64,000 nt of DNA, taken from Holophagales bacterium (GTDB lineage Bacteria; Acidobacteriota; Thermoanaerobaculia; UBA5066). Below, piece by piece: positions 2,828 through 59,794 of the stretch; within the stretch, counting starts at the first letter, position 1, and each line of letters opens with the position of its first letter. Both the position numbers and the translations under genes were made by a program. The DNA is taken from positions 18,687 to 82,686 of the forward strand of contig JADJVF010000011.1 in NCBI GenBank assembly GCA_016716705.1, read 5' to 3'. Under the pieces are notes generated by a model. That model saw only the letters and a program-made list of their open reading frames with translations, ran no database searches and was not told the DNA's origin.

Positions 2828-3814
2828 TCACTTCGGGCCGATGAGCGCAGAGAAGACGAGGTAGGGGTTCACGACGAGGCCCTTCCACGGACTCGGGGAG
2901 TCGGTATCGCGGAAGATGGAGAAGTGGAGGTGCGGGCCGGTGGAGCGGCCTGTCGAGCCGACCTCGCCGATCTTCTGTCCCCGCGCCACCCTGTCGCCGA
3001 CCTTGAGTCCGGGAGCGTAGCGGGAGAGGTGGGCGTAGTAATAGACGAACCGTCCCGTGGCGTCGCGCAGGTAGATGACGATGCCGCCACGGCGGTCGCG
3101 GCCGAGGCGCTCGATCGTCCCGTCATTCACCGCCACGATCGGCGTTCCCTTCGGGGCGCCGAGGTCGATCGCGTGGTGTTTCCTGTGGCGGCCGCGCGAG
3201 GCGTCGAAGGTGTCGCGCAGCTTCTCTTTCGGGAAGGACTCGATCGGAAGCGGGAAGTCCGTGGCGAAGAGGGTCGCCAGCTCCTCCTCCGGGATGGAGG
3301 CGGGCCTGCTGTCCTTCTTGCTCACGACGAGCCCCTTCAGCGTCCGTCCGAGGTTCTGCCAGAAGGATTTCTGCTCGTCGGAGAGGGAGGGGAGTACGGC
3401 CGGGACGACGGATCCACGGGAATAGAGGCCGTCTTCCATCGGCTCGTCCCCGTCGGGGTCTTCCTCGAGCGGGAGGTCGTCGGCCTGCTCGCGGGCCGCG
3501 GCAAGAATGGCCGGGAGACCGGGCGGAAGCGCCACGTGGCGGCTCTGGGGCGCCTGGTTTCCGCGCGTGATCCAGGCGAGATCGGCCTCGTCGGCCGTCC
3601 GATAGCAACTGCCGTCTTCGGGATCGCGGACAGGGCACGGATTCACGGAGCCGGGGGCGGGGGCGGACTTCTCGGCGCCGGGTGCGAACGAGGCCGTCGC
3701 GTCGGCCGGAGCCGAGCCGCCCGGGGCTCCCGCAGCGGAAGCGGACGCGGAGACAGCCGCCGCGAGGGCGAGCCCGAAGAGGGCCGCGGCCCCGGAAAGC
3801 GCGGGTCTCGTCAG
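2828..3814 (-). CDS. M23 family metallopeptidase (secreted); start codon unresolved
   Basis: M23 motifs HHAIDLGAPKGTPIVAVNDGTI...GSTGRSTGPHLHFSI. A signal peptide LTRPALSGAAALFGLALAAAVSASASAAG sits at the 5' end of the frame. No ATG, GTG or TTG precedes it, so the only candidate is a CTG (RC of 3812-3814) overlapping the efp stop. Confidence 0.7.
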   Translation of the reverse strand: MTRPALSGAAALFGLALAAAVSASASAAGAPGGSAPADATASFAPGAEKSAPAPGSVNPCPVRDPEDGSCYRTADEADLAWITRGNQAPQSRHVALPPGLPAILAAAREQADDLPLEEDPDGDEPMEDGLYSRGSVVPAVLPSLSDEQKSFWQNLGRTLKGLVVSKKDSRPASIPEEELATLFATDFPLPIESFPKEKLRDTFDASRGRHRKHHAIDLGAPKGTPIVAVNDGTIERLGRDRRGGIVIYLRDATGRFVYYYAHLSRYAPGLKVGDRVARGQKIGEVGSTGRSTGPHLHFSIFRDTDSPSPWKGLVVNPYLVFSALIGPK

Positions 3815-4371
3815 CCTGCCCTCTCCAGGTAGGAATCGTCGCGGGTGTCGATCCGGATGACCGTTCCCACGTCGACGAATTGCGGGACCATCACCTGAAG
3901 GCCGGTCTCGAGCTTCGCCGGCTTGTAGGAAGCGGTGGCCGTGGCACCCTTCATTCCCGGGTCCGTCTCGACGATCTTCAGGGCGACCGTCGTCGGGAGC
4001 TCGACGGAAATCGGGTTCCCTTCGTAGAAGTCGACGTCGATGACCGTCTCGGGAAGGAGGTACTTCATCGCGTCGCCCACGATCTCGTCCGTCAGGCGGA
4101 TCTGGTCGTAGGTCTCCTGGTTCATGAAGTGGTGCCCCTCGCTGTCCGAGTAGAGGTACTGCATCTCGTGCGTGTCGAGGCTCGCCTTCTCGATCTTGTC
4201 CTCGGAGCGGAAGCGGTGCTCGTTCATCGAGCCGGACTTGAGGCTGCGGAGCTTGGCCTGGACGAAGCCGCGGAGGTTCCCCGGCGTCTTGTGGACGACG
4301 GAGTGGGCGCGGTGAAGCTCCCCGTTGTGGACGACGATCATGCCGGCTCGAAGTTCGGTAGCTGAGATCAT
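3811..4371 (-). CDS. efp: translation elongation factor P
   Basis: 186 aa beginning MISATELRAGMIVVHNGELHRAH, typical EF-P length and N-terminus. ATG at 4369-4371 (RC), stop TGA at 3811-3813 (RC). Confidence 0.9.
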   Translation of the reverse strand: MISATELRAGMIVVHNGELHRAHSVVHKTPGNLRGFVQAKLRSLKSGSMNEHRFRSEDKIEKASLDTHEMQYLYSDSEGHHFMNQETYDQIRLTDEIVGDAMKYLLPETVIDVDFYEGNPISVELPTTVALKIVETDPGMKGATATASYKPAKLETGLQVMVPQFVDVGTVIRIDTRDDSYLERAG

Positions 4372-4475
4372 TCCGCGTCCTGGTACAGCCCTTCCGCTCA
4401 GCACAGCTTTCGCCGGACGATCCGGTCTCCTGCGGCGCCAAACGCGTGGAGGGTAAACCGACTACGCCTCCCAAA

Positions 4476-4508
4476 GCAAGCGGGACCGCCCGAAGGCGGT
4501 CCCGCTTG
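4476..4508 (-). terminator. rho-independent terminator candidate downstream of the SGNH-hydrolase gene
   Basis: Perfect 14-15 bp stem (gcaagcgggaccgcc / ggcggtcccgcttg) with a cgaa loop. On the minus strand it is followed by CUUUGGGAGG. It lies 23 nt past the stop at 4531. Confidence 0.4.
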
Positions 4509-4530
4509 GAAGCTATTTGGCTGGAATGGC

Positions 4531-6009
4531 TTAGTCGATGAGACTCACGCGCGGGACGCGAGGTGCCACCGGGATCGGGAGTTCGCCGTTGCCGTCTCCG
4601 AGGACGAGGCCCCTCGACTGGGTCGAAACGCCCATCGTCTGCCAGAAGTTCTCGAGGACTTCCGGCGTGAAGTACGCCGCGGCGTACTCGATGATTTCCT
4701 GCTGGCTCGGAGGGCCGTAGGAGCTGGTCGGGAAGCCGCCGGCCGACGTATTGCCGTTGAAGAGATACGCCGACATGTCGACCCGCGGGAGGCTCGTCCC
4801 GTAGTTCGCGTTCACGAACTGGACGAGGGCGTCCGCGACGATCGCGTAGCCCGTGGCGCTCGGGTGGACGCCGTCGTAGGAGAAGACGCCGCCCGAGAGG
4901 TAGTTCGACGTCAGTGTGATTCCGGCGAAGTCCCGCCCGTGGACGGCGATGTCGACCAGGAGAGCGGCGGCGTCGAACACCTTGTAGCCGGCCGCTTCGG
5001 CCAGGGTCCTGATCTGCTGGTTGTACTCGGTGCCACGGGCCTGCAGGAGCGACACCTCGCTCGGGTAGAGGAGGCCTGGTACTGCGGTGCCATTGATGAC
5101 GGTCCCGTTGTCCGGCAACGGGGTGTTGCACTTGGGGAGCGTGGGGGCGACAGCGCAAGGAATCCCGTACCCGGCCTTCATCAGGGCGCCGAGAGGCAGC
5201 GGCACGTAAGTTCCAAACGGCACCGGGCACGCGGGTACGCCCGCCGGGCAGCCCGTCGGCCCGAGGACGTAGATCGGAGCGCCCGTCGAGGGGTTGACAC
5301 CGAGGAAGGGCCCGACGGCCGTGAAATACGGAAGGGTCAAGACGTTCGGGATCGTCATCACGATTCCCTTTCCGGTGCCACCCTGAGCCGCTTTCATCGT
5401 GTCGACGATGGTCTTGTACGAGGCCGCGTAGGCCTCCTTGGAGATCAGCGTCACGCCGTCGATGACGGTGCCCGAGGTCGCCGGTCCGAGGAGCTCGTTG
5501 CCGAGGACGCCGATCGCGAAGAACGTCGGCTTCAGCGAAGCGGCCTGCTGGAGGACCGTGGCCCCGCTGCCCCGGAGGACGACGTCGATCAGGGCGTTCT
5601 TGCACGGCACGGTGCCGGTGTTCGTGACGCAGTTGACGACGCTCGCCCCGAGGTAGCCCGGGATGGCCAGGTTGTTGTAGGGGGTGGGAAGAGTGAGGTT
5701 CTCGGGCTTTCCGGTGTTCGGCGCGTAGCTGAAGGTCGGCGCCAGGCTCGTGAGGATCTGGCAGGGGCCGAGGCCCGGCTCGCCGATGATCGGCTGCTGG
5801 AAGCCGGAGACGCCCGCCTGGCGGGCGAAGATCGCGGGCCAGGAGTCCGTCTGGCCGTGCTTGACCCAGCAGCTGTCGATGAACCCGGCGTCGACGGACG
5901 CGCCGACGGCGACGAACTTGGTGAAGTCAGCCTGCGCGGCGGCCGGGGAGGCCGAAACCACGAGGGCGAGCGCGAAGGCGACGAGGAGGGTGTTCTTCAT
6001 GGTCTTCAC
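4531..6009 (-). CDS. secreted SGNH/GDSL-like hydrolase (lipase/esterase family)
   Basis: GTG start at 6009 (RC) with a GAGGGGG SD that overlaps the fadL stop. Signal peptide (V/M)KTMKNTLLVAFALALVVSASPAAAQA. N-terminal block VAVGASVDAGF and C-terminal block DGVHPSATGYAIVADAL fit the SGNH fold. Confidence 0.55.
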   Translation of the reverse strand: MKTMKNTLLVAFALALVVSASPAAAQADFTKFVAVGASVDAGFIDSCWVKHGQTDSWPAIFARQAGVSGFQQPIIGEPGLGPCQILTSLAPTFSYAPNTGKPENLTLPTPYNNLAIPGYLGASVVNCVTNTGTVPCKNALIDVVLRGSGATVLQQAASLKPTFFAIGVLGNELLGPATSGTVIDGVTLISKEAYAASYKTIVDTMKAAQGGTGKGIVMTIPNVLTLPYFTAVGPFLGVNPSTGAPIYVLGPTGCPAGVPACPVPFGTYVPLPLGALMKAGYGIPCAVAPTLPKCNTPLPDNGTVINGTAVPGLLYPSEVSLLQARGTEYNQQIRTLAEAAGYKVFDAAALLVDIAVHGRDFAGITLTSNYLSGGVFSYDGVHPSATGYAIVADALVQFVNANYGTSLPRVDMSAYLFNGNTSAGGFPTSSYGPPSQQEIIEYAAAYFTPEVLENFWQTMGVSTQSRGLVLGDGNGELPIPVAPRVPRVSLID

Positions 6010-46774: not shown

Positions 46775-46910
46775 GGCGTGCCGGGGAGCAGCCCCGACGA
46801 GGCGGACGGGTTCGACGGGGGGCGGGATCGCCCCTGCCGGAAACCTGCCGCGACGCAGCGCGTACCTCGGAAAGGTGCCCCTCCGCAGAGGTCGGTCCGA
46901 GGAGGAACGG

Positions 46911-48389
46911 ATGAGAAGAATCGTTCCTGCCGCAGCGGCTATCGCGGCTTTTCTTGCTCTTTCCGCCGCGCCTGCCCTGGGCCAGGAGAAGCCGCGCGCC
47001 TTCGCAAGCTACGCAGAGATGCGCGCGGAGGCGGGGCGCCTTTCGAACGACGAGAAGTACGCCGAGGCTGCGGCCATCCTCGAGAAGGCGATCGACGCGT
47101 ATCCCGATCGGCTTCGTGCCAACACGTACAACCTCGCCTTGATGCGCGTGAGGCTCGGGGAGCCGGAGAATGCGGCAGAGGCTCTCGAGCTCGGTCTCTC
47201 CCGCGGGGCCTGGTACGGCAAGTTCGATTTTTTCGCCGAGCTCTGGGCTCCGCTGAAGGCGCTACCGCGCTTCGCGGAGATCGAGAGGCGCTGCGAGGCG
47301 CGCAGGGCCGAGGCCGAGAAGCTCCTGAAGCCGCGACTGGACGTCGCCGTTCCCCCCGGCGCCAGGGCGGGTGCGAAGCTCCCGCTCTTCATCGCGCTTC
47401 ACGGCGGGGGCGAGAACGTCGACGCCTTCCGCCCGCACTGGACCTCTCCGCTTCTCGAGCAGGGCTTCGTCGTGGCCTACCCGCAGTCGACCCAGCTCGT
47501 CGCGCCCGACGGATACGACTGGATGCAGGACGCCCCGCGCACGCTCCGCGAGCTGAAGGACGTCTACACCAGGCTCGTCGCGGATTACCCGGTCGACGCG
47601 TCCCGGGTCGTCGTCGGCGGTTTCTCGTCGGGCGGGGCGGCGGCCCTCGAGGTGGTCGCCGCCGGGACGTTCCCGGTGTCCGGTTTCGTCTCCCTCTGCC
47701 CGCCGAGACCGCCCGGCCTCACGGCCGAGAAGGCCCGGGCCGCGGCGTCGCGGGGCGTGAAGGGGACGCTGCTCACGACCGAACGGGATGGGCGTCTCGC
47801 CGACCAGAAGGAGATGGCCGAGCTGATGCGGGGCGCGGGGCTCCTCGTCGATTTCGTCGTGACGCCCGACATCGGCCACTGGTACCCCGCGGACCTCGCC
47901 GCGAGGATCGATTCCACTCTCCGGGCGGTCGTTCCGCTCGGGCTGCCAGGAGCGGCGGGTGAGAGAGCCGTGGTCGAAGCGGCGATCCGCGACTCCATCG
48001 GCTGGGCGCTCGGGAAGGACAGGGCGCGCCTGGAGAGCATCCTGACGCACGACGACGACCTCTTCATCTTTCATCCCGACTCGAAGTCGAACGTGAGTGG
48101 GTGGGCCGCATTCTCGAAGCTTCTGGACGGGTTCATGGATCCCCGCTTCGTGGCGACCCGCTTCGAGGTGAGAGACCTCGCCATCACCTTCTCCCGCGGG
48201 GGAGACGTGGCCTGGTTCTCGACGCTTCTGGAGGATTGCGGCACCTGGGAGGGGAAGGAGTCGTGCTGGAAGGACACCCGCTGGACGGGGGTCCTCGAGA
48301 AGCGGGGCGGAACCTGGAGGATCGTCCAGATGCACTTTTCGTTCGCCAGGGACAAGGTCCTCGCGGAGTGCCCTGTCCCCGCGGCTTAG
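46911..48389 (+). CDS. secreted alpha/beta-hydrolase (esterase) with C-terminal SnoaL/NTF2-like domain
   Basis: ATG at 46911 with GAGGAGG. Signal peptide. Nucleophile elbow GGFSSGG. C-terminal 130 aa NTF2-like. Confidence 0.6.
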   Translation: MRRIVPAAAAIAAFLALSAAPALGQEKPRAFASYAEMRAEAGRLSNDEKYAEAAAILEKAIDAYPDRLRANTYNLALMRVRLGEPENAAEALELGLSRGAWYGKFDFFAELWAPLKALPRFAEIERRCEARRAEAEKLLKPRLDVAVPPGARAGAKLPLFIALHGGGENVDAFRPHWTSPLLEQGFVVAYPQSTQLVAPDGYDWMQDAPRTLRELKDVYTRLVADYPVDASRVVVGGFSSGGAAALEVVAAGTFPVSGFVSLCPPRPPGLTAEKARAAASRGVKGTLLTTERDGRLADQKEMAELMRGAGLLVDFVVTPDIGHWYPADLAARIDSTLRAVVPLGLPGAAGERAVVEAAIRDSIGWALGKDRARLESILTHDDDLFIFHPDSKSNVSGWAAFSKLLDGFMDPRFVATRFEVRDLAITFSRGGDVAWFSTLLEDCGTWEGKESCWKDTRWTGVLEKRGGTWRIVQMHFSFARDKVLAECPVPAA

Positions 48390-48435: not shown

Positions 48436-49586
48436 ATGCCGTTTCGCTCCCGGACCCTCCTGGTGCTCTTCCTCCTCGGGCGGCCGCTCGTCGCTGCCGA
48501 ACCCCCGTTCGCGACGGAGCTGGCGATCGGGTTCGGGTACGAGGGGAGCGCGATGCAGCGACCCGTCGTCGTTCTCGACGGGACCCCCTCGTCCGCCTAC
48601 GAGTACTCCGCCGACGGAAGGGCGCACACGGTCGACGTCGCGGCGACGCGCTGGTTCTCGCCGGTCGGCGACGACGACCGGACTCCCTTCGCGCTTCTGC
48701 CGTACGTCGCGCGGTCCTCGAGCGCCACGGCGCGCTTCGCCCTGACCGGGACGAGCCGCGACTCGTTCGGGAGCTTCTCGGGGCAGGAGTCGAGCCTGGA
48801 AGTTCGGCTCGCGGGAGACGGATCGCTCCGTGAGGCGGACCTTTCGGCCGAGTGGTTCTTCGGGAGGAGCCTCGCCGTGCGCGGGAGCTTCGAATACGGA
48901 AACGAGCGGGAGACGGCTGCGTCGACCGGCGTGGAACGCCCCTCGGGCCGGGCCGACGTCTCGACGGCCGGGACGCGCTCGTCGAGCGCGACGGGCTCGC
49001 TCGGCCTCGCCCTCCGCCTCGGCGAGCACGAGGTGAGCGCTACGGGGAGCTACGGTGAATCGGACCAGACGCGCGACGACGCGAGCGCTTTCACCGGGAG
49101 CGCGCAGCCCTTCTTCTCGACCCTGACCTCGGAGGGGATCGTCCGGCGGGCGACGCTCGGCACGCGCCTTCTCTTTTTCGATCGGCGCCTCGCCGTCGAC
49201 GCCTCGGCGAGCACCGCCGAGACGACCTCCTCCTCGGACCTCGCGACGGCCCTCTCCGGCCCCTTCGTCCAGGGGCGGGCATCTCGAGGATCGCGACCGT
49301 CGAGGCGACCTGGTTCGCGACGCGCCGCCTCGGCCTCTCGGCCGGCTTCGGGTTCGGCTCGCAGGACGTGTCCTCCGGCTCGCCCGGGCGGCTCCGGCCG
49401 TCGCGGTCGGAGACGGCACGAACGTTCTCCGCGAGCCTCCGGTGGTTCGCGTCGGAGCGGGTCTCCGTCGTCCTTTCGGCGTCGCGGACCCGGAGCGAGG
49501 AGATCACGCCTCCCGATTCGAGCACCTACCAGCGCTTCGAGGAGACCGTCGACCGTGTGACGCTCGGAGCGGCGCTGAGGTTCTGA
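48436..49586 (+). CDS. putative outer-membrane beta-barrel protein; apparent frameshift near 49265-49290
   Basis: Signal peptide MPFRSRTLLVLFLLGRPLVAAEP. Alternating beta-strand pattern with a C-terminal …VTLGAALRF. The C-terminal 100 aa are only coherent in a second frame. The stop at 49584-49586 lies 1 nt before the kefC GTG. Confidence 0.45.
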
Positions 49587-49587
49587 C

Positions 49588-51571
49588 GTGCACGGGTCGG
49601 TCTTCCTCCGCGATCTGGCGTGGGTCCTCGCGGCCTCCCTCCCGGTGCTCTTCCTCTTCCGGAAGCTGAAGGCGCCCGCCATCGCCGCGTTCCTCGTGAC
49701 GGGAATGCTGATCGGCCCGCACGCGCTCGGTCTCGTGGAGGACCCGGCCCGCGTCAGCGGGATCGCCGAGCTCGGCGTGGCGCTCATCCTCTTCTTCGTC
49801 GGCCTGGAGTTCCCGCTCGCCCGGCTCAAGACGATGGGGCGGTCGGCGCTCGTCGGGGGCTCCCTCCAGATGGCCTTCGCCGCGGCCGCGACGGCTGCCG
49901 CGCTACTGGCCTTCGGCGTCCCCGCGCGCGAGGCGGTCTTCGCAGGCATCCTCGTCTCGGTCTCCTCGACCGCCGTCGTCCTTCCGGTCCTCGCGGCGCG
50001 CGACGAGCTCGGCGGACCTGCTGGCAAGCAGTTCCTCGGCGTCGCGCTCTTCCAGGACCTCGCCGTCATTCCCCTCGTCCTCCTCCTCCCCGCCCTCGCG
50101 CCGCAGGGAAACGGGGCGCCCGACCTGGGACCGCGTGCTGACGAAGGTCGGCGTCGCCGCGGTCGGAACGGTCCTCCTCGTCGCCGTCGCCCGCTTCCTC
50201 GTACCGAGGGTCCTCGACCGATTCGTCCGCGTGGCGGGGCCGGAGACCTTCACGGCCGCGGCCCTCGTCGTCGTCCTCGGCATCGTCGCCCTCGTCGAGA
50301 CCGCGGGCGCGTCGGCGGCGATGGGTGCCTTCGCGGCGGGGATCGTCCTGGCCGAGAGCGAGTCGATCGCCGACGTCTCCTCGACGTTCGCGCCGTTTCG
50401 CGACGTCCTTTCGAGCCTTTTCTTCATCTCGGTCGGGATGCTCTTCGACCCGCAGTTCCTGGCCCATCACCCGGGTCTGGTCCTCGCCGGCGCGGCGTTC
50501 GTCGTCGGGGCGAAGCTGCTCACGGCCTACCCGGCGCTGCGGATCGCGAGGGCCGTCCCGAAGACGGCCGTCCGCGCCGCGCTCGCCCTCGCCAACGTCG
50601 GCGAGTTCTCGTTCGTCCTCGCGCTCGCGGGCGGGAAGCTGGGGCTCCTCGGCGCGTCGGGGCAGCAGCTCTTCGTGGCCGTCGCCGTCCTGACGATCCT
50701 CCTCGTGCCGTTCGTGATCGGCGCCGGGCCGGCGCTCGCGGCGCGGCTCCCCGACGTGCACACCGACCGTGAGCCGGTCGCCTCGGAGCTGCGCCGCGGA
50801 CACGTCGTCGTCGTCGGCTACGGCCTGAACGGGAGCAACGTCGCGCGCGTCCTCGGAGAGACGGGGCTGAAGACGGTCGTCGTCGAGGCGGACGCGGACC
50901 GCGCCGACAACGCGCGGCGCGACGGCGTGGCGGTGCTCCTGGCGGACGCGACGGGCGTCGAGGGGCTGTTGATGGCGGGCATCGTGCGGGCTCGAGCCGT
51001 CGTCGTGACGATTCCCGACCCGGGAGCGAGCCGGAAGGTGGTGCGGATCTGCCGGTCGCGCAACGCCGACGTGCGGATCATCGTCAGGACGCGGTACATC
51101 CGGGAGGTCGAGGAGCTTCGCCGCGCGGGAGCGGACGAAGTGATCCCGGAGGAGTTTGAGACGTCGATCGAGATCGTCGCGCGGGTCCTCCGCTCGCTTC
51201 ACGTCCCGGGGAACATCATTGCGACGCAGGTCCGCATCCTCCGGGACGAGGCGTACAGGAAGCTCCGCGACCCGCAGGCGCGGCCCGAGGCGGGTCGGCG
51301 GCTGTCGGCGCTCATGGCCGCCGGCACTTCGGACCTCGTCCTCATCCTCCCGGAGATGGCGGCAGCGGGGAAGACGCTCGGTGAGCTCCACCTCGAGGAG
51401 GAGCACGTCGCCGTCCCGGCGCTCCTGCGAGACGGCGTGCCGCTCGCGCCTCCACCTCTCGACGTCCCGATCGAGGCGGGCGACACGCTCCTGCTCGTCG
51501 GCGCGCACGAGGATCTCGTCCACGCCACGAAGCGGCTGGAGGGGAGCGGGCCGGAAGAACCGGTGCGGTGA
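49588..51571 (+). CDS. kefC: KefB/KefC-type CPA2 K+/H+ antiporter with RCK (TrkA-N/TrkA-C) domain; apparent frameshift near 50105-50135
   Basis: Aligns with E. coli KefB across the junction ([21 protein letters not shown]…DWDRVLTKVGVAAVG versus [39 protein letters not shown]). Rossmann motif VVVVGYGLNGSNV. Two frames: 49588-50100 and 50135-51571. Confidence 0.8.
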
Positions 51572-51599
51572 GCGGGACGTAGGGCGGTCGAAGGACGAG

Positions 51600-52989
51600 C
51601 GCTCTGATCATCGCGACGGCGGCCGCACTCGTAGCCGCTTCGCTCTGGCTTTCGGCCGGGCTGCCCCTCGTCGCGCTGGCGGACTTCGTTCACGAGGACG
51701 CCCTCTCGGCGCCCTCTGGCTGACTCGCGAGGAGGGGATCTGGATCGTACCGGCCGTCGGGACGCTGCTCGCGGCGACGGTCGTTCGCACGGCGATCACC
51801 CATGGAAGGACGCGCCCCGTGGGCGAGGCGGCGCTGGTGGCGTTGCTCCCGGCCGGAGTCCTCGGAACCGTCCTCGTCGTGGTGGCCTTCGTGAACCTCC
51901 GGGTTTACGGGTCGTTCTCGGTGCGCGAGTCGTCGAGCGAGCCGTTCCTGTCGGCTTACGGCTCTCTCGTCCGCATCCGTTCTCTTCCGCCGGTTCCCCG
52001 GGTTCCCGCCTCGCGCGAGCTGCGTCTCCGTGCCTACGCCCAGAGCCCGGCCCTGCGGCCCCTCGAGCCGCATCTGGAAGGAGAGGTCGGGCGGAGGTTC
52101 ATCGCCTCGAGCGAATGGCTGATCCCTGAGGCGAAGGGCGAGATCACCGCCGGATGGCTCCAGTTCGCCCTTCGCGAATCGGCGGCGAGGACCGGGCGCT
52201 ACCGCGACGCCCGAACGGCCGCGGGGTTCTGGAAGCAGGTCGCGCGAGAGCTGGACGACGCCTGCGACCGGGGGCGGCTTGCGTGCGGGCCGAATCCACG
52301 GTCGATGACGCCGGCGGACGCGACGGCGCAGCTCCCCGCCGTCTTCGCGGACCTTCCCCGGACCCTCGCGTTCCTGGCCACTTCGGTGGACTCCGCCCCG
52401 GCGCTGCGGAATGCCGCGTGGAGCCGGGGGTCGAGGGAGTCCCGCATCGTCTTCGCCCGTACGACACGCGAGCGGCTGGCTCCCGCGGCGGACGAACCCC
52501 GCTGGTTCCGCGTCTTCGGCTGGGCCTTCCAGCGAGGGGGGGCTCCCGTCGCCTGGAGGGTTCTCGGTCCGGACGGCGCGCCGGTTCCCTCTGGCGTCCG
52601 CCACCTGGCGAGCGGGGACGTCGCCGCCGCGACCCGGTGTCTCCGGGCGAGAGGCTCGGGCCCCCCCGCGAGCGCTCGAGCTGAGCATCGTTGCCGTGCA
52701 GGTCGCGCCGCCCCCGACGGGGCCAGGAGAGTACGAGCGGAACGAGACGCGATTGGCCGCGCTGAGGGGAATCGCTGGCGCCTACCGGCGAATCCTGACA
52801 CCGGGCCTCCCGGTGGCCATCGTGCTCTTCGCCCTCGCGGCGGGTGTCGCGGCACTTCGCCGTCGGGGCGGCCCCGGCGTGGTCGTCGCAGGCGCACTCC
52901 TCGCCGGAGTCGTGGCGCGCGTGGCGCTGCTCGCCCTCATCGACCGGCTGTTCCGCCGTGAAGGCCACGGGTCCTCAGGCGCCCTCTAA
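51600..52989 (+). pseudogene. decayed N-terminally truncated paralogue of the downstream polytopic membrane protein (frameshift at a C7 run, 52661-52667)
   Basis: 51711-51755 is near-identical to 53586-53630 (gctctggctgac[t/c]cgcgaggaggggatctggatcgt). The protein matches copy-2 residues about 190-700 in two frames (51156-frame and 52411-frame). No start codon, and a stop at about 51720 in the N-terminal frame. Confidence 0.45.
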
Positions 52990-53013
52990 GCTCGGGTAGG
53001 AGCGCGCCGGGGA

Positions 53014-55122
53014 GTGCCTGCTACGCTCGCCGCCGTGACCACCGCGCGCCGGGCGGCGACACCCCGCGGCCCCTTCGACCGCTTCCCGGCCCGGTTTGGT
53101 TGGATTTTCGCCGGGGCGCTCCTGGCGCTGCTCGCCGCGTGGATCCAGTCGGTTCTCCCCCTGACGGCGATCGGCGGCGCCAGCGCGGACGACGCCCTTT
53201 ACGTGAGGCTCGCCGAATCCGCCGCGCGGGGAGAGTGGCTCGGCCCCTACGACGAGTCGACGCTCAGCAAGGGGCCGTTCTTCCCCCTCTTCGTGGCGGC
53301 GGCCTTCCGCGCCGGGGCTCCGCTCTTCGACGCCGAGCGGGCGCTCTACGTAGCGGCCTGCGCGCTCTTCGTCCTGGCCGTCGCTCCGGTCGTGCGCACG
53401 GAGTGGGGGCGACTCCTCCTCTTCTCGCTCCTCGTGTTGAACCCCGTCGTCGTGACGCGCGCGGTGCGGGAGGGGCTCTACCCCGCGTTGACCCTCCTCG
53501 TCCTCGCGGGAGGCGTCGGCGTCCTCTGCTGGCTCCCCACGTCGTACCGGCGGGCGGCGGCCTGGGCGGGCCTCTGCGGCGTTTCGCTCGGAGCGCTCTG
53601 GCTGACCCGCGAGGAGGGGATCTGGATCGTCCCGGCGGTGGCGCTGCTCCTCGGGGCTGCCGTCCTCCGCGCGGCGACGGACTCCGCGGCGAGGCATCGC
53701 CTGCTGCGCGCCACGGTCCTCGCGCTCCTGCCGCTCCCGATCGCGGCGGTCTGCGTCCAGGCGGTGGCACTCCGGAACCGGGCGGCTTACGGCGTCCCGA
53801 CGGCGTGCGAGTCGACGGACCGCCCGTTTACCTCAGCATACGGGGCGCTCGCGCGGATCGTCCCGTCCGACAGGAAGGCGAAGGTCCCGGTTCCCGCGGA
53901 TGTCCGGCGAAAGGCGTACGGGCAGAGCGAGGCCTTCCGGCATCTCGAGCCCTTCCTGGAGGGAGCGGTCGGGGCCGGCTGGTCGGCGATCAGCGCCGCG
54001 AACCTGCCGGAGACGGCAGGCGAGATCGCGGGCGGCTGGTTCCAGTTCGCGATTCGCGAGGCCGCCGCGAAGGCCGGCTTCTATCGGGACGCGACGACGG
54101 CCGCCTCCTTCTGGCGGCGCGTCGCCTCCGAGCTGAACGGAGCGTGCGCGGCGGGGAGACTCGATTGCCTTCCGGAGAGGCACACGCTGACGCCCGTGGG
54201 GGCGCTCGCGCTGGCGCCGACGCTGCTCCGCGGCGTGCCGGAGAACTTCGCCCTCCTCTGTTCCTCGATCGACGCGAGCTCTTCCCGGAACCTCGGGTCG
54301 AGCAGCGGCCCTCCGGGCGCTCGCCTCCTCTTCGCGCGGGTCACGCGCGAGCCCCTCGCGCCGGGGGCCGAAGACCGCCGCTGGGTGACGATCCGCGGCT
54401 GGGCGTATCGCTCCGGCGCGCCTCCGCTGGAGTGGAGGGCTCGAGCGCCGGATGGGACCCCGCTTCCGGTGGCCCAGAGCTGGTCGCCGAGCGGCGACCT
54501 CGTCGAGTGGTTCTCCGACCCTTCCGCGAGCCGGGCGCGCTTCCGCCTCGAGGCGTCTTGCCCCGGACCGTGCGCCGTCGAGCTGACGGAGGCGGGGTCC
54601 GTCCTCCTGCGCTTCGAGCCTTCGGCGCCGGACGAGAGGAGCGGACCGATGCCCGCCGACCTGAAGCTCTGGCTCGACACGGTGAAGGTCCGGCCGCCCG
54701 AACGTGCGGGCGACCGCTGGGGATTGGACGACCTGCGGCGCGGAGCCCTCGACCGGCTCGCGTCGGCCTATGCCCGGGGCCTGGGTCTGCTCCTACCGGC
54801 CGCGGTCGTCCTCTTCGGCGCGACGGCGGCGTGGGCACTCATCCGCCGACGGGCGCCGGTGCCGGTTCTCGTCGGGGCCGCGCTGCTGGGAGCCGTCGTT
54901 TCCCGGATCGTCCTTCTCGACCTCGTCGACCGGACCTCGTTCCCGGCGCTCCACCCGCTCTACTTCGCGCCGGCCTACCCGCTCCTCTACGCCTTCGTCG
55001 TCCTCGCCTTCGTCTCCGCGGCCGGGGCGCTGGGGCGCGTCCCGGCCGCGGAGCGGCTTTCGGCCTACCTCTGGACGAAGGCCACGACCTTCGGCTTCAC
55101 GAGGCGTTCGAAGTCCGAGTAG
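53014..55122 (+). CDS. large polytopic membrane protein of unknown function (N-terminal TM bundle, about 350-aa soluble middle, 3-4 C-terminal TMs)
   Basis: 702-aa ORF with GTG at 53014. Hydrophobic segments at both ends. No motif I can name. The architecture is reminiscent of GT-C-type integral-membrane glycosyltransferases, but that is conjecture. Confidence 0.6.
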   Translation: MPATLAAVTTARRAATPRGPFDRFPARFGWIFAGALLALLAAWIQSVLPLTAIGGASADDALYVRLAESAARGEWLGPYDESTLSKGPFFPLFVAAAFRAGAPLFDAERALYVAACALFVLAVAPVVRTEWGRLLLFSLLVLNPVVVTRAVREGLYPALTLLVLAGGVGVLCWLPTSYRRAAAWAGLCGVSLGALWLTREEGIWIVPAVALLLGAAVLRAATDSAARHRLLRATVLALLPLPIAAVCVQAVALRNRAAYGVPTACESTDRPFTSAYGALARIVPSDRKAKVPVPADVRRKAYGQSEAFRHLEPFLEGAVGAGWSAISAANLPETAGEIAGGWFQFAIREAAAKAGFYRDATTAASFWRRVASELNGACAAGRLDCLPERHTLTPVGALALAPTLLRGVPENFALLCSSIDASSSRNLGSSSGPPGARLLFARVTREPLAPGAEDRRWVTIRGWAYRSGAPPLEWRARAPDGTPLPVAQSWSPSGDLVEWFSDPSASRARFRLEASCPGPCAVELTEAGSVLLRFEPSAPDERSGPMPADLKLWLDTVKVRPPERAGDRWGLDDLRRGALDRLASAYARGLGLLLPAAVVLFGATAAWALIRRRAPVPVLVGAALLGAVVSRIVLLDLVDRTSFPALHPLYFAPAYPLLYAFVVLAFVSAAGALGRVPAAERLSAYLWTKATTFGFTRRSKSE

Positions 55123-55529
55123 TGGAGCTTCATCAGCTCGGTGTGGGAGCCGGCGTTGAACGCGATCTCGGCGTCCTCGGACAGCCTCGGCGCGACGTAG
55201 ACGTCCATGCCGTAGAGGTTGCCGAACGGGGGCATCGCTCCGGCCTCGCAGTCGGGGAAGAGCTCGCGGAACTCGGCCTCGCTCGACAGGACGACGACCC
55301 CTCCACCGGTGACGTCGCGCAGGACCTGGAAGTCGACGCGCTGCGAGGCCGGCAGGACGACCATCACCGGCTTGCCGTCGACCTTCACCATGACGGTCTT
55401 GGCGAGCTCCTTTCCTTTGACGTGCGCGGAGGCGGCGATCTCCTGCGCCGTGTAGGCCGGCGAGTGGACGATCGATACCCAGCGGACGCCGTTCTGGTCG
55501 AGGAATTCCTTCAGCTTCCGGACGGGCAT
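55065..55529 (-). CDS. YbaK/EbsC-like aminoacyl-tRNA deacylase-domain protein
   Basis: ATG at 55529 (RC) with AAGGAGGG. About 154 aa. Resembles the YbaK fold (…VVLPASQRVDFQVLRDV…GAMPPFGN…). Confidence 0.55.
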   Translation of the reverse strand: MPVRKLKEFLDQNGVRWVSIVHSPAYTAQEIAASAHVKGKELAKTVMVKVDGKPVMVVLPASQRVDFQVLRDVTGGGVVVLSSEAEFRELFPDCEAGAMPPFGNLYGMDVYVAPRLSEDAEIAFNAGSHTELMKLHYSDFERLVKPKVVAFVQR

Positions 55530-55778
55530 GGGGCCCTCCTTTCCGGCCGAACGGGGCACGCCCCGGCCGGCCCGTACGCGGGCGCTCGGGTCGTCTCGGT
55601 GTGGTGCGGCGCGCTCATGCCGTCACCTCCGAACCGGTTGGGTGGTTCGGTAGAATTCTATTCCCGCAACGCAGCCGACGCGCGCTGCGAAGCAGCGTAG
55701 CGAGGCCGCGTCGCGGGTCGCCGAAGGATCCACCTGGAAGAGGACCGCACCGGGACCGACGCTGGTCCGGTGTCCGGT

Positions 55779-58610: not shown

Positions 58611-58728
58611 AGCGGCTCCCGGGCGCTGGGCCGGTGGCCTCGCTGATCACGACTCGACGGACGGGAACCCCGCCAGGCGTACGGAGCGTTGCCTGCCCTC
58701 CGGACTCCGCTGGTAAGATGCGATTTCG

Positions 58729-59230: not shown

Positions 59231-59794
59231 TCAAGACCTGACCCCAAGGCTCCGGACGAGGCGGAGGGGGAGGCCGATGACGTTGGAGGGGGTCCCGGAG
59301 ATCCGCTCCACGAAGAGCCCGCCGAGGCCCTGCAGGGCGTAGGCGCCCGCCTTGTCGGCCGGCTCGCCGGAGGCGACGTAGGCGTCGACCTCGTCGTCGG
59401 TCATCGAGGCGAAGACGACCTCGGTCGTCTCGCGCCCCGACACGAGAACCCCGTCTCGAGCGAGGGCGACCCCCGTGACGACGTCGTGCGCGCGGCCGCG
59501 GAGAGCGCGGAGCATCCGCCGGGCGTCCTCGTCGTCGCGAGGCTTCCCGAGCGCCATGCCGTCGAGGACGACGATCGTGTCCGCGGCGAGGACGACGGTC
59601 CCCGCCGGTGCCGAGGACGCCACGGCCGAGGCCTTGGCGCGGGCGAGCCGCTCCGCGGCATCGTGGGCGTCCTCGCCCGGGAGCAGCGACTCGTCCACGT
59701 CGGCCGGCCGGACCTCGGGCTCGAGCCCGAGGGCGCGGAGGAGGTCGAGGCGGCGGGGTGAGGACGAGGCGAGGAGGAGACGCGGTCGGCTCAC
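59231..59794 (-). CDS. maf: Maf-family nucleoside triphosphate pyrophosphatase
   Basis: …[15 protein letters not shown]… N-terminal Maf motif. GTG at 59794 (RC), 12 nt after the upstream gene's stop. An alternative ATG at 59878 would overlap that gene by 72 nt. Confidence 0.7.

Follow-up and report, generated by a model that had tools for sequence, protein, structure and literature searches.

The stretch of DNA analysed here, called the window throughout, comprises 64,000 nucleotides (nt) of a Holophagales contig (JADJVF010000011.1) with a G+C content of about 72%. It carries two tandem paralogs of a family of polytopic membrane proteins (Table 1). The downstream gene, copy 2 or paralog B, is intact. 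The upstream gene, copy 1, is a remnant of paralog A and is referred to as psi-A. The pair is preceded by a gene for a Kef-type K+/H+ antiporter and followed by a YbaK/tRNA_edit-like gene, the conserved downstream neighbour, which overlaps the 3' end of copy 2 convergently. Taking all results together, we assign a probability of about 0.8 to the following reading: A and B are ancient duplicates of a family resembling glycosyltransferases of the C fold (GT-C), B is intact, A is a young pseudogene, and a short DNA segment nearly identical in both copies is due to constraint on the protein and not to gene conversion.

Table 1. Coordinates of the two paralogs, of the segments and deletion junctions of psi-A and of the adjacent genes in the window (TM, transmembrane helix; aa, amino acids; L004 and L001, loci of relatives introduced in the text)
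Feature	Position	Strand	Remarks
Kef-type K+/H+ antiporter gene (Na_H_Exchanger + TrkA_N + TrkA_C)	49588..51571	+	conserved upstream neighbour; Pfam matches on two frames
Copy 1 (psi-A)	51568-52999	+	tandem paralog directly upstream of copy 2
psi-A N-terminal remnant	51568..51704	+	MAFFT alignment with L004, codon mapping, start and stop scan
388-nt deletion junction	51704..51705	+	A residues about 64-189 gone
psi-A middle segment	51705..52629	+	matches A residues 190-501 (TM5-TM7, most of the periplasmic domain)
45-nt core in psi-A	51711..51755	+	encodes (G)ALWLTREEGIWIVP(A)
106-107-nt deletion junction	52629..52630	+	conserved SCPGPC region of the beta-sandwich gone
psi-A C-terminal segment, different frame	52666..52949	+	matches A residues 549-642 (TM8-TM9)
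131-nt deletion junction	52949..52950	+	TSFPALH loop and following TM helix gone
Copy 2 (paralog B)	53014..55122	+	intact 702-aa GT-C-like membrane protein
45-nt core in copy 2	53593..53637	+	encodes W196-L-T198-R199-E200-E201-G, periplasmic end of TM5
YbaK/tRNA_edit-like gene	55065..55559	-	open reading frame plus synteny and nt match to L004/L001 genes with PF04073

Residues 8-702 of copy 2 are 99.9% identical (one mismatch) to IPL90_10460, a protein of a Holophagales metagenome-assembled genome (MAG) at NCBI, which is annotated as a hypothetical protein of 695 aa and starts 7 codons downstream of the copy 2 start. Searching the window with copy 2 (tblastn) yielded two matches upstream of it, one at 51696-52622 for residues 189-496 (46% identity, E 1.8e-68) and one in another frame at 52666-52947 for residues 547-640 (41% identity, E 1e-10). 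These values are far beyond chance and bear out the tandem paralogy proposed in a preliminary description of this DNA, whose quoted peptides are present. The matches cover about 400 residues of copy 2 instead of the 500 C-terminal residues claimed there. Copy 1 is much closer to the homologs P0011 (702 aa, 83% identity) and P0007 (704 aa, 78%) than to copy 2.

The lesions of psi-A were called by base-level alignment of the window to the loci L004 and L010 of two relatives. The Kef stop codon (TGA 51569-71) shares bases with a GTG at 51568, whose frame is closed four codons later by a TAG at 51580. The N-terminal tail shows a net loss of about 30 nt, and 32 codons at 51583-51704 (third frame) match residues 32-63 of intact A, comprising TM1 and the 'HEDAL' loop with its conserved Asp. 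The 388-nt deletion takes out TM2-TM4 together with the invariant WLGPYD, P144, R152 and Y156. The middle segment is 87% identical to intact copy A of L004 at nt level and 83% at aa level. A 1-nt deletion is found at 52661, and after the 131-nt junction the last about 50 nt of A follow. In total, 438 of the 702 codons of copy A are left, distributed across three frames. These frame-breaking lesions (the four deletions, the TAG and the -1 at 52661) are beyond repair by single-base correction, and jointly they cost the protein four TM helices, the region of the putative catalytic loop and a portion of the periplasmic domain. The upstream copy is therefore degraded, as first described, but by four deletions plus a 1-nt deletion and an early stop rather than by a single frameshift. 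The described N-terminal truncation applies to residues about 64-189, whereas the 32-codon remnant survives; and the start codon reported as missing is present in the form of the GTG, albeit with the TAG shortly behind it.

Large deletions are confined to copy 1; elsewhere no deletion above 7 nt was detected in the 11.6 kb aligned to L004 (48.4-60 kb). The flanks of the deletion junctions share a microhomology of only 2-5 nt, which says nothing about the mechanism. We also considered copy 1 as a natural short isoform. This was rejected: the N-terminal TM module is kept in all 83 homologs, and the short forms of 550 aa lack part of the periplasmic domain instead.

In several relatives, both copies have intact 702-aa orthologs in the same synteny, which the preliminary description had proposed to check. 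The loci L004 (Joint Genome Institute metagenome) and L005 (Logan assembly) both contain a 383-aa gene, Kef (652 aa), A (702 aa), B (702 aa) and the convergent YbaK gene, and the first four of these genes are spaced by 0-15 nt in L004. The closest relative, the MAG MFD10097.bin.2.1 (L010 and L007), exhibits 89-94% nt identity to the window. Its copy A is intact, with all three deleted regions present, and its copy B is intact save for one 1-nt deletion. The latter lies in L007 at about 1320 (corresponding to 53266 of the window) and is absent in L004; long-read MAGs of this kind carry sporadic frameshifting indels. Other relatives possess one copy. The arrangement Kef-A-YbaK without B was detected in the Holophagales MAG GCA_016714815.1 (L001/L009) and in L013, and Kef-B-YbaK in L006/L008, where A is gone and 18 nt are left between the genes. 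Full-length intact orthologs of copy 1 thus occupy the same position in L004, L005, L010 with L007, and L001.

In a neighbour-joining tree the A clade, the B clade and the clade of A plus B each had the support of all 200 bootstraps, and A lies as far from the outgroup as B does (1.30 and 1.33). This indicates that the duplication predates the diversification of these Holophagales, and the single-copy genomes would then be due to later loss of one or the other paralog. The decay of A is recent. The ratio of nonsynonymous to synonymous substitution rates (dN/dS) between the psi-A remnant and intact A of L004 is 0.306 and lies within the range of intact pairs (0.30-0.32; 0.31 for A of L004 and A of L001, 0.30 for B of the window and B of L004). 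With L001 as outgroup, the psi-A branch received 33.7 nonsynonymous and 44.3 synonymous changes and the branch of intact A 14 and 22, respectively (Fisher P=0.69), and the share of the psi-A branch that evolved neutrally is about 7% (point estimate). The still gene-like ratio and the lack of a difference between the branches point to a recent inactivation.

The relatives exhibit every stage in the deletion of a tandem duplicate, namely both copies, A only, B only and A half-gone. Sister lineages keeping both copies, only A or only B suggest a partial redundancy of the pair that differential loss is now resolving. The features observed are those of decaying bacterial pseudogenes with a deletion bias, i.e. 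several deletions in one member of a redundant pair, complete excision in a relative and short junction microhomologies. Nothing sets psi-A apart from such pseudogenes except that its decay is recent enough for a dN/dS of 0.31. The pseudogene as such is routine, an ordinary event of gene birth and death.

At the border to Kef we observed a further difference between the relatives. The Kef proteins of the window and of L006/L008 carry an 8-codon C-terminal extension (GSGPEEPVR / GSGPEEVAR; 51549-51571 in the window, 790-810 in L006), which is lacking in L004 and L001. In L004 the stop codon of Kef and the GTG start of copy A run into each other (TAGTG), and in L001 one base likewise belongs to both genes. 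The Kef/A junction underwent remodelling in that lineage in which A was subsequently lost or is still being lost. Dating the inactivation of A to the common ancestor of the window and L006 by this shared extension was rejected, since most of the psi-A branch was constrained according to dN/dS.

The gene upstream of Kef (48436 to about 49586) encodes a 383-aa signal-peptide protein without a Pfam family and is frameshifted by a 1-nt deletion at 49275-49281 compared to L004 and L010. Kef itself has, again compared to L004 and L010, a +1 insertion near 50131-50134 that distributes the gene over two frames and might be either genuine or an error of the long-read consensus; the Kef orthologs in L001 and L004 are intact and 652 aa long. 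Three consecutive genes (the 383-aa gene, Kef and copy A) are therefore broken in the window, and everything downstream is intact. It might be that this whole operon-like block was inactivated together, so that A was no lone casualty of redundancy. The tight packing of the four genes in L004 would fit such an event, and so would the indels between 53 and 60 kb, all of which are intergenic, in-frame or within the last about 9 codons of a gene (Maf, 59246). We regard a joint inactivation as unlikely, however: both upstream lesions are single-base changes indistinguishable from sequencing errors, and Kef was kept beside B in L006, which lost A.

What speaks against our reading concerns the decay of A on the one hand and the assignment of the fold on the other; the latter is taken up below. 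As to the decay, relaxed selection, which would shift dN/dS toward 1, was not found in psi-A, a result that fits an artefact, too. The deletion allele is known from one metagenome-assembled contig only, and searches with exact and wobble-degenerate junction patterns gave 0 matches in genome and metagenome contig collections, in which the strain may be absent. Furthermore, the contig is not error-free, as the 1-nt indels, typical of long-read MAGs, in the two genes upstream of copy 1 show. Together with the private indel of the sister MAG in copy B (L007), these points would be expected if copy 1 were intact in the real organism and the deletions were errors of a long-read metagenome assembly, arising by mis-consensus or strain mixing. 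We consider this improbable. Long-read consensus errors comprise 1-2 nt and not 30-388 nt, and four large deletions are found in a single gene of 2.1 kb compared to none in the other about 9.5 kb aligned to L004. There is no repeat to collapse, A and B being only about 68% identical in DNA. Finally, an independent relative lost the whole of A at the same place, which makes a loss biologically plausible.

Both copies belong to a large family: among 1.84 billion representative proteins, 4506 clusters (at 50% identity) matched its profile with E<=1e-10, and at least 224 loci were confirmed in species-representative genomes by a scan with a 13-sequence alignment. The carriers comprise Acidobacteriota, Verrucomicrobiota, Alpha-, Beta- and Gammaproteobacteria, Nitrospirota, Thermodesulfobacteriota, Cyanobacteria, Firmicutes (Cohnella), Chloroflexota and lineages of the candidate phyla radiation (CPR). 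Neither copy 2 nor the fragments of copy 1 nor any of 70 homologs is matched by a Pfam or NCBIfam model, in agreement with the earlier impression of an unannotated family. D59 is invariant in the 70 sequences and the pair D59-D60 in the 13-sequence set. Two Cys pairs, 378/385 and 516/520, are invariant as well, which fits a disulfide-bonded periplasmic domain.

A second family copy was found nearby in 7 of 80 loci, and the proteins P0084 (1488 aa), P0085 (1353 aa) and P0087 (1146 aa) contain two N-terminal family modules in one chain, which arose by natural fusion of tandem paralogs or else by the merging of gene calls. Second copies and double-module proteins indicate that local duplication is a habit of the family. 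P0079 (556 aa) joins a TrkA_N domain to the first about 350 family residues and probably stems, in another relative, from read-through between Kef and copy A or from a merged gene call.

An AlphaFold2 model of copy 2, calculated with the 70-sequence alignment, reached a predicted local distance difference test score (pLDDT) of 92.2 and a predicted template modelling score (pTM) of 0.87. In the model, TM1 (26-45) and a loop with two short helices (60-71 and 89-99) are followed by six further TM helices, so that the N-terminal bundle counts seven TM helices and extends to residue 259. The soluble domain (260-568) combines a helical part with a beta-sandwich, and 3-4 TM helices form the C-terminus. 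The model thereby agrees with the architecture first ascribed to copy 2, an N-terminal TM bundle, a large soluble middle and C-terminal TM helices. In a Foldseek comparison with the PDB, proposed earlier as a check for a GT-C fold, the best match was ArnT (5EZM, E 8.7e-5, probability 1.00), and AglB, Pmt1/2 and Pmt4 (each 1.00) and ALG3 (0.96) were matched, too. All matches with a probability of at least 0.84 are GT-C enzymes. The N-terminal TM module of the predicted structure matches known GT-C structures. D59 is located behind TM1 and in front of the two short loop helices and TM2, i.e. in the first loop, which in ArnT, PMT and OST enzymes harbours the catalytic acid; a catalytic role of D59 is suggested by this position in the model. 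R152, Y156, R199, E200, E201, N255 and Y259 would lie on the same, periplasmic membrane face according to the helix order of the model, from which the topology was deduced. We therefore tentatively regard the family as a candidate for glycosyltransferases with a GT-C fold, a view based on a predicted structure.

The genomic surroundings of the family fit this assignment. Among 120 immediate neighbours at 70 diverse loci there are 24 proteins of glycosyltransferase family 2 (GT2), 13 methyltransferases and 4 GtrA domains; GDP-mannose dehydratase or epimerases, nucleotidyltransferases and BacA occur as well. An ArnC-like GT2 is encoded within 5 kb at 46 of 80 loci in many phyla, and 34 of these 46 proteins belong to one subfamily of about 390 aa (at least 40% identity). 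Its members are encoded upstream on the same strand, consist of a GT2 domain followed by four predicted TM segments and are homologous to E. coli ArnC (E 1e-11 to 1e-17). At L018, L020, L022, L025, L033, L048, L056 and L071 (about 3700-4950 each), which belong to very distant phyla, this gene is situated immediately upstream of the family gene. Only the GT2 domain of the partner is recognised by Pfam, and ArnC possesses two TM segments compared to the four predicted here. Adjacency to Kef was rejected as an informative functional clue, as it is found only in Holophagales (4 of 80 loci).

With regard to the fold, the points on the other side are the following. Global template modelling scores to GT-C structures are low (0.25-0.35), and the assignment comes from a predicted structure. 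None of the existing models of GT-C families (Pfam PMT, PMT_2, YfhO and others; NCBIfam) matched any of the 70 members, and a search of the profile against the PDB sequences retrieved nothing relevant, apart from a spurious match to ELAPOR1 (E 0.2). An hhalign comparison of the A1 profile with the single E. coli ArnT sequence was not significant, though suggestive (E 0.26), the only aligned stretch being DDALYVRLAES..GEWLGPY versus DETRYAEISRE..GDWIVPH of ArnT. The periplasmic domain folded alone (pLDDT 80.7) had no Foldseek match in the PDB at E<=1e-3, only generic immunoglobulin (Ig)/filamin-like sandwiches being retrieved. Furthermore, no ArnC-like GT2 was detected in the 64-kb window by tblastn with 8 conserved GT2 partners. 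It might thus be that the family comprises other polytopic membrane proteins, e.g. transporters or polymerases/ligases, with a superficial likeness to GT-C enzymes, the more so as transporters of the resistance-nodulation-division (RND) type and MmpL appear in the Foldseek list. The latter do so with a probability of at most 0.25, however, and the first periplasmic loop with its invariant Asp, a feature of ArnT, PMT and OST, too, along with the conserved ArnC-like GT2 partner accompanied in many phyla by sugar-nucleotide genes, GtrA and BacA, leave little probability for a function other than that of a glycosyltransferase.

The short segment nearly identical in psi-A and copy 2 encodes a motif close to the putative active site. 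The best 45-nt segment of the codon alignment is identical at 41 of 45 positions, compared to a mean of 26 of 45 (57% average), so both the near-identity and the divergence outside the segment, described from the start, hold. The core peptide L-G-A-L-W-L-T-R-E-E-G-I-W-I-V-P contains the invariant R199 as well as W196, T198, E200, E201 and P207, each at least 90% conserved in the 70-sequence family alignment. At 10 of the 16 degenerate positions of the core the same codon is used; the background, taken from all amino acids identical between both copies in the whole alignment, is 52% (binomial P=0.29). B of the window is identical to A of L004 and to A of L001, a genome without B, at 40 of 45 positions each, compared to the 41 of 45 between psi-A and B within the window. 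The core is the family's most conserved motif (W-L-T-R-E-E-G), kept by purifying selection at protein level together with a GC-rich codon bias that leaves few synonymous choices. Of the two explanations offered in the preliminary description, gene conversion and selection, the latter thus applies, acting on the protein. That conversion homogenised the core, for which the high identity and a Val at the I-V-P position of copies 1 and 2 (Ala or Leu in orthologous A genes) might be cited, is very improbable and not needed, as there is neither an excess of synonymous identity nor an excess of identity within the genome and the motif is conserved across phyla. Short blocks of near-identical DNA between diverged paralogs in genomes of high G+C content can accordingly be explained without gene conversion.

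Farther from the pair, some differences to the relatives were noted. L010, a close relative, lacks a counterpart to about 760 nt (47460-48217) of an apparently intact gene of 504 aa (46875-48389). A cluster of 1-nt indels compared to L004 and L007 is located at 58624-58705 in the spacer between two GGDEF genes, and a further 1-nt indel at 59246 near the 3' end of Maf. No gene core is disrupted by these indels.

In Bacillus and Listeria, the pairs CsbB-YfhO and YkcC-YkcB consist of a GT2 and a GT-C enzyme and glycosylate teichoic acids. The two-gene order of GT2 followed by GT-C is presumably comparable to the arrangement found here, which is present in Firmicutes, too (Cohnella loci L018 and L021). 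A Pfam match to YfhO (PF09586) or PMT_2, on the other hand, was obtained for 0 of 70 members.

The best structural matches of copy 2, i.e. ArnT (GT83, the transferase for 4-amino-4-deoxy-L-arabinose on lipid A; PDB 5EZM/5F15) and the GT-C_A class (PMT/GT39, OST/AglB/PglB), were obtained with E values of 8.7e-5 to 1e-3 and a probability of 1.00. They share with the family the N-terminal TM module, a large domain in the periplasm and a first loop in which an invariant Asp is followed by two short helices ahead of TM2. As with ArnT, an ArnC-like GT2 is encoded next to the family gene in most other phyla. Unlike in these enzymes, the soluble domain of the family is inserted after TM7 and more TM helices follow; it is composed of a helical part and an Ig-like beta-sandwich without a match in the PDB, and homology is not detectable at sequence level (no Pfam PMT or PMT_2; hhalign as above).

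In systems of the Gtr and Arn type, polyprenyl phosphate is loaded with a sugar by a GT2, and the transfer of this sugar by a GT-C enzyme takes place outside the cytoplasm (PMC11127046). Three-component periplasmic glycosylation of the Gtr type comprises the flippase GtrA, the GT2 GtrB and a serotype-specific GT-C enzyme, a newer example being the GT136 system (PMC11127046). The family resembles these systems in the pairing of a GT-C-fold protein with a membrane-anchored GT2 and in the GtrA domains among its neighbours (4 of 120). In Gtr systems the GT-C enzyme varies and can be dispensed with, and the gain and loss of A and B are in line with this. The family differs in the four instead of two predicted TM segments of its GT2 partner and in not being phage-borne. 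The three components were not found together at the Holophagales locus, whose neighbours are Kef and YbaK: the tblastn search of the 64 kb yielded no GT2, and no scan aimed at GtrA was made.

By analogy to ArnT and the Gtr-type GT-C enzymes, the protein may work at the periplasmic face with a polyprenyl-phosphate-sugar as donor, which the adjacent ArnC-like GT2 would make in most other phyla. The active site would consist of Asp59 in the first periplasmic loop and the R152/Y156/R199/E200/E201/N255/Y259 cluster, and the sugar would be passed to an envelope acceptor bound by the disulfide-containing periplasmic domain. It is possible, although we are doubtful, that the A/B family represents a new GT-C family without a sequence model and forms, with the four-TM ArnC-like GT2, a widespread two-gene cassette for envelope glycosylation. 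Such a cassette would span Acidobacteriota, Verrucomicrobiota, Proteobacteria, Nitrospirota, Firmicutes, Cyanobacteria and CPR bacteria.

The loss of A in this Holophagales bacterium is an ordinary evolutionary event, and the family itself a modestly interesting orphan, widespread yet unstudied. It now has a candidate active site (D59, R152, Y156, R199, E200, E201, N255, Y259) and a conserved ArnC-like partner. For glycobiologists it is a candidate for a new glycosyltransferase family, with Cohnella, Variovorax, Roseomonas and Acerihabitans among its cultured hosts. If the cassette exists as proposed, the tandem paralogs A and B would add different sugars or linkages, and losing one of them would change the cell-surface glycan, comparable to gtr seroconversion.

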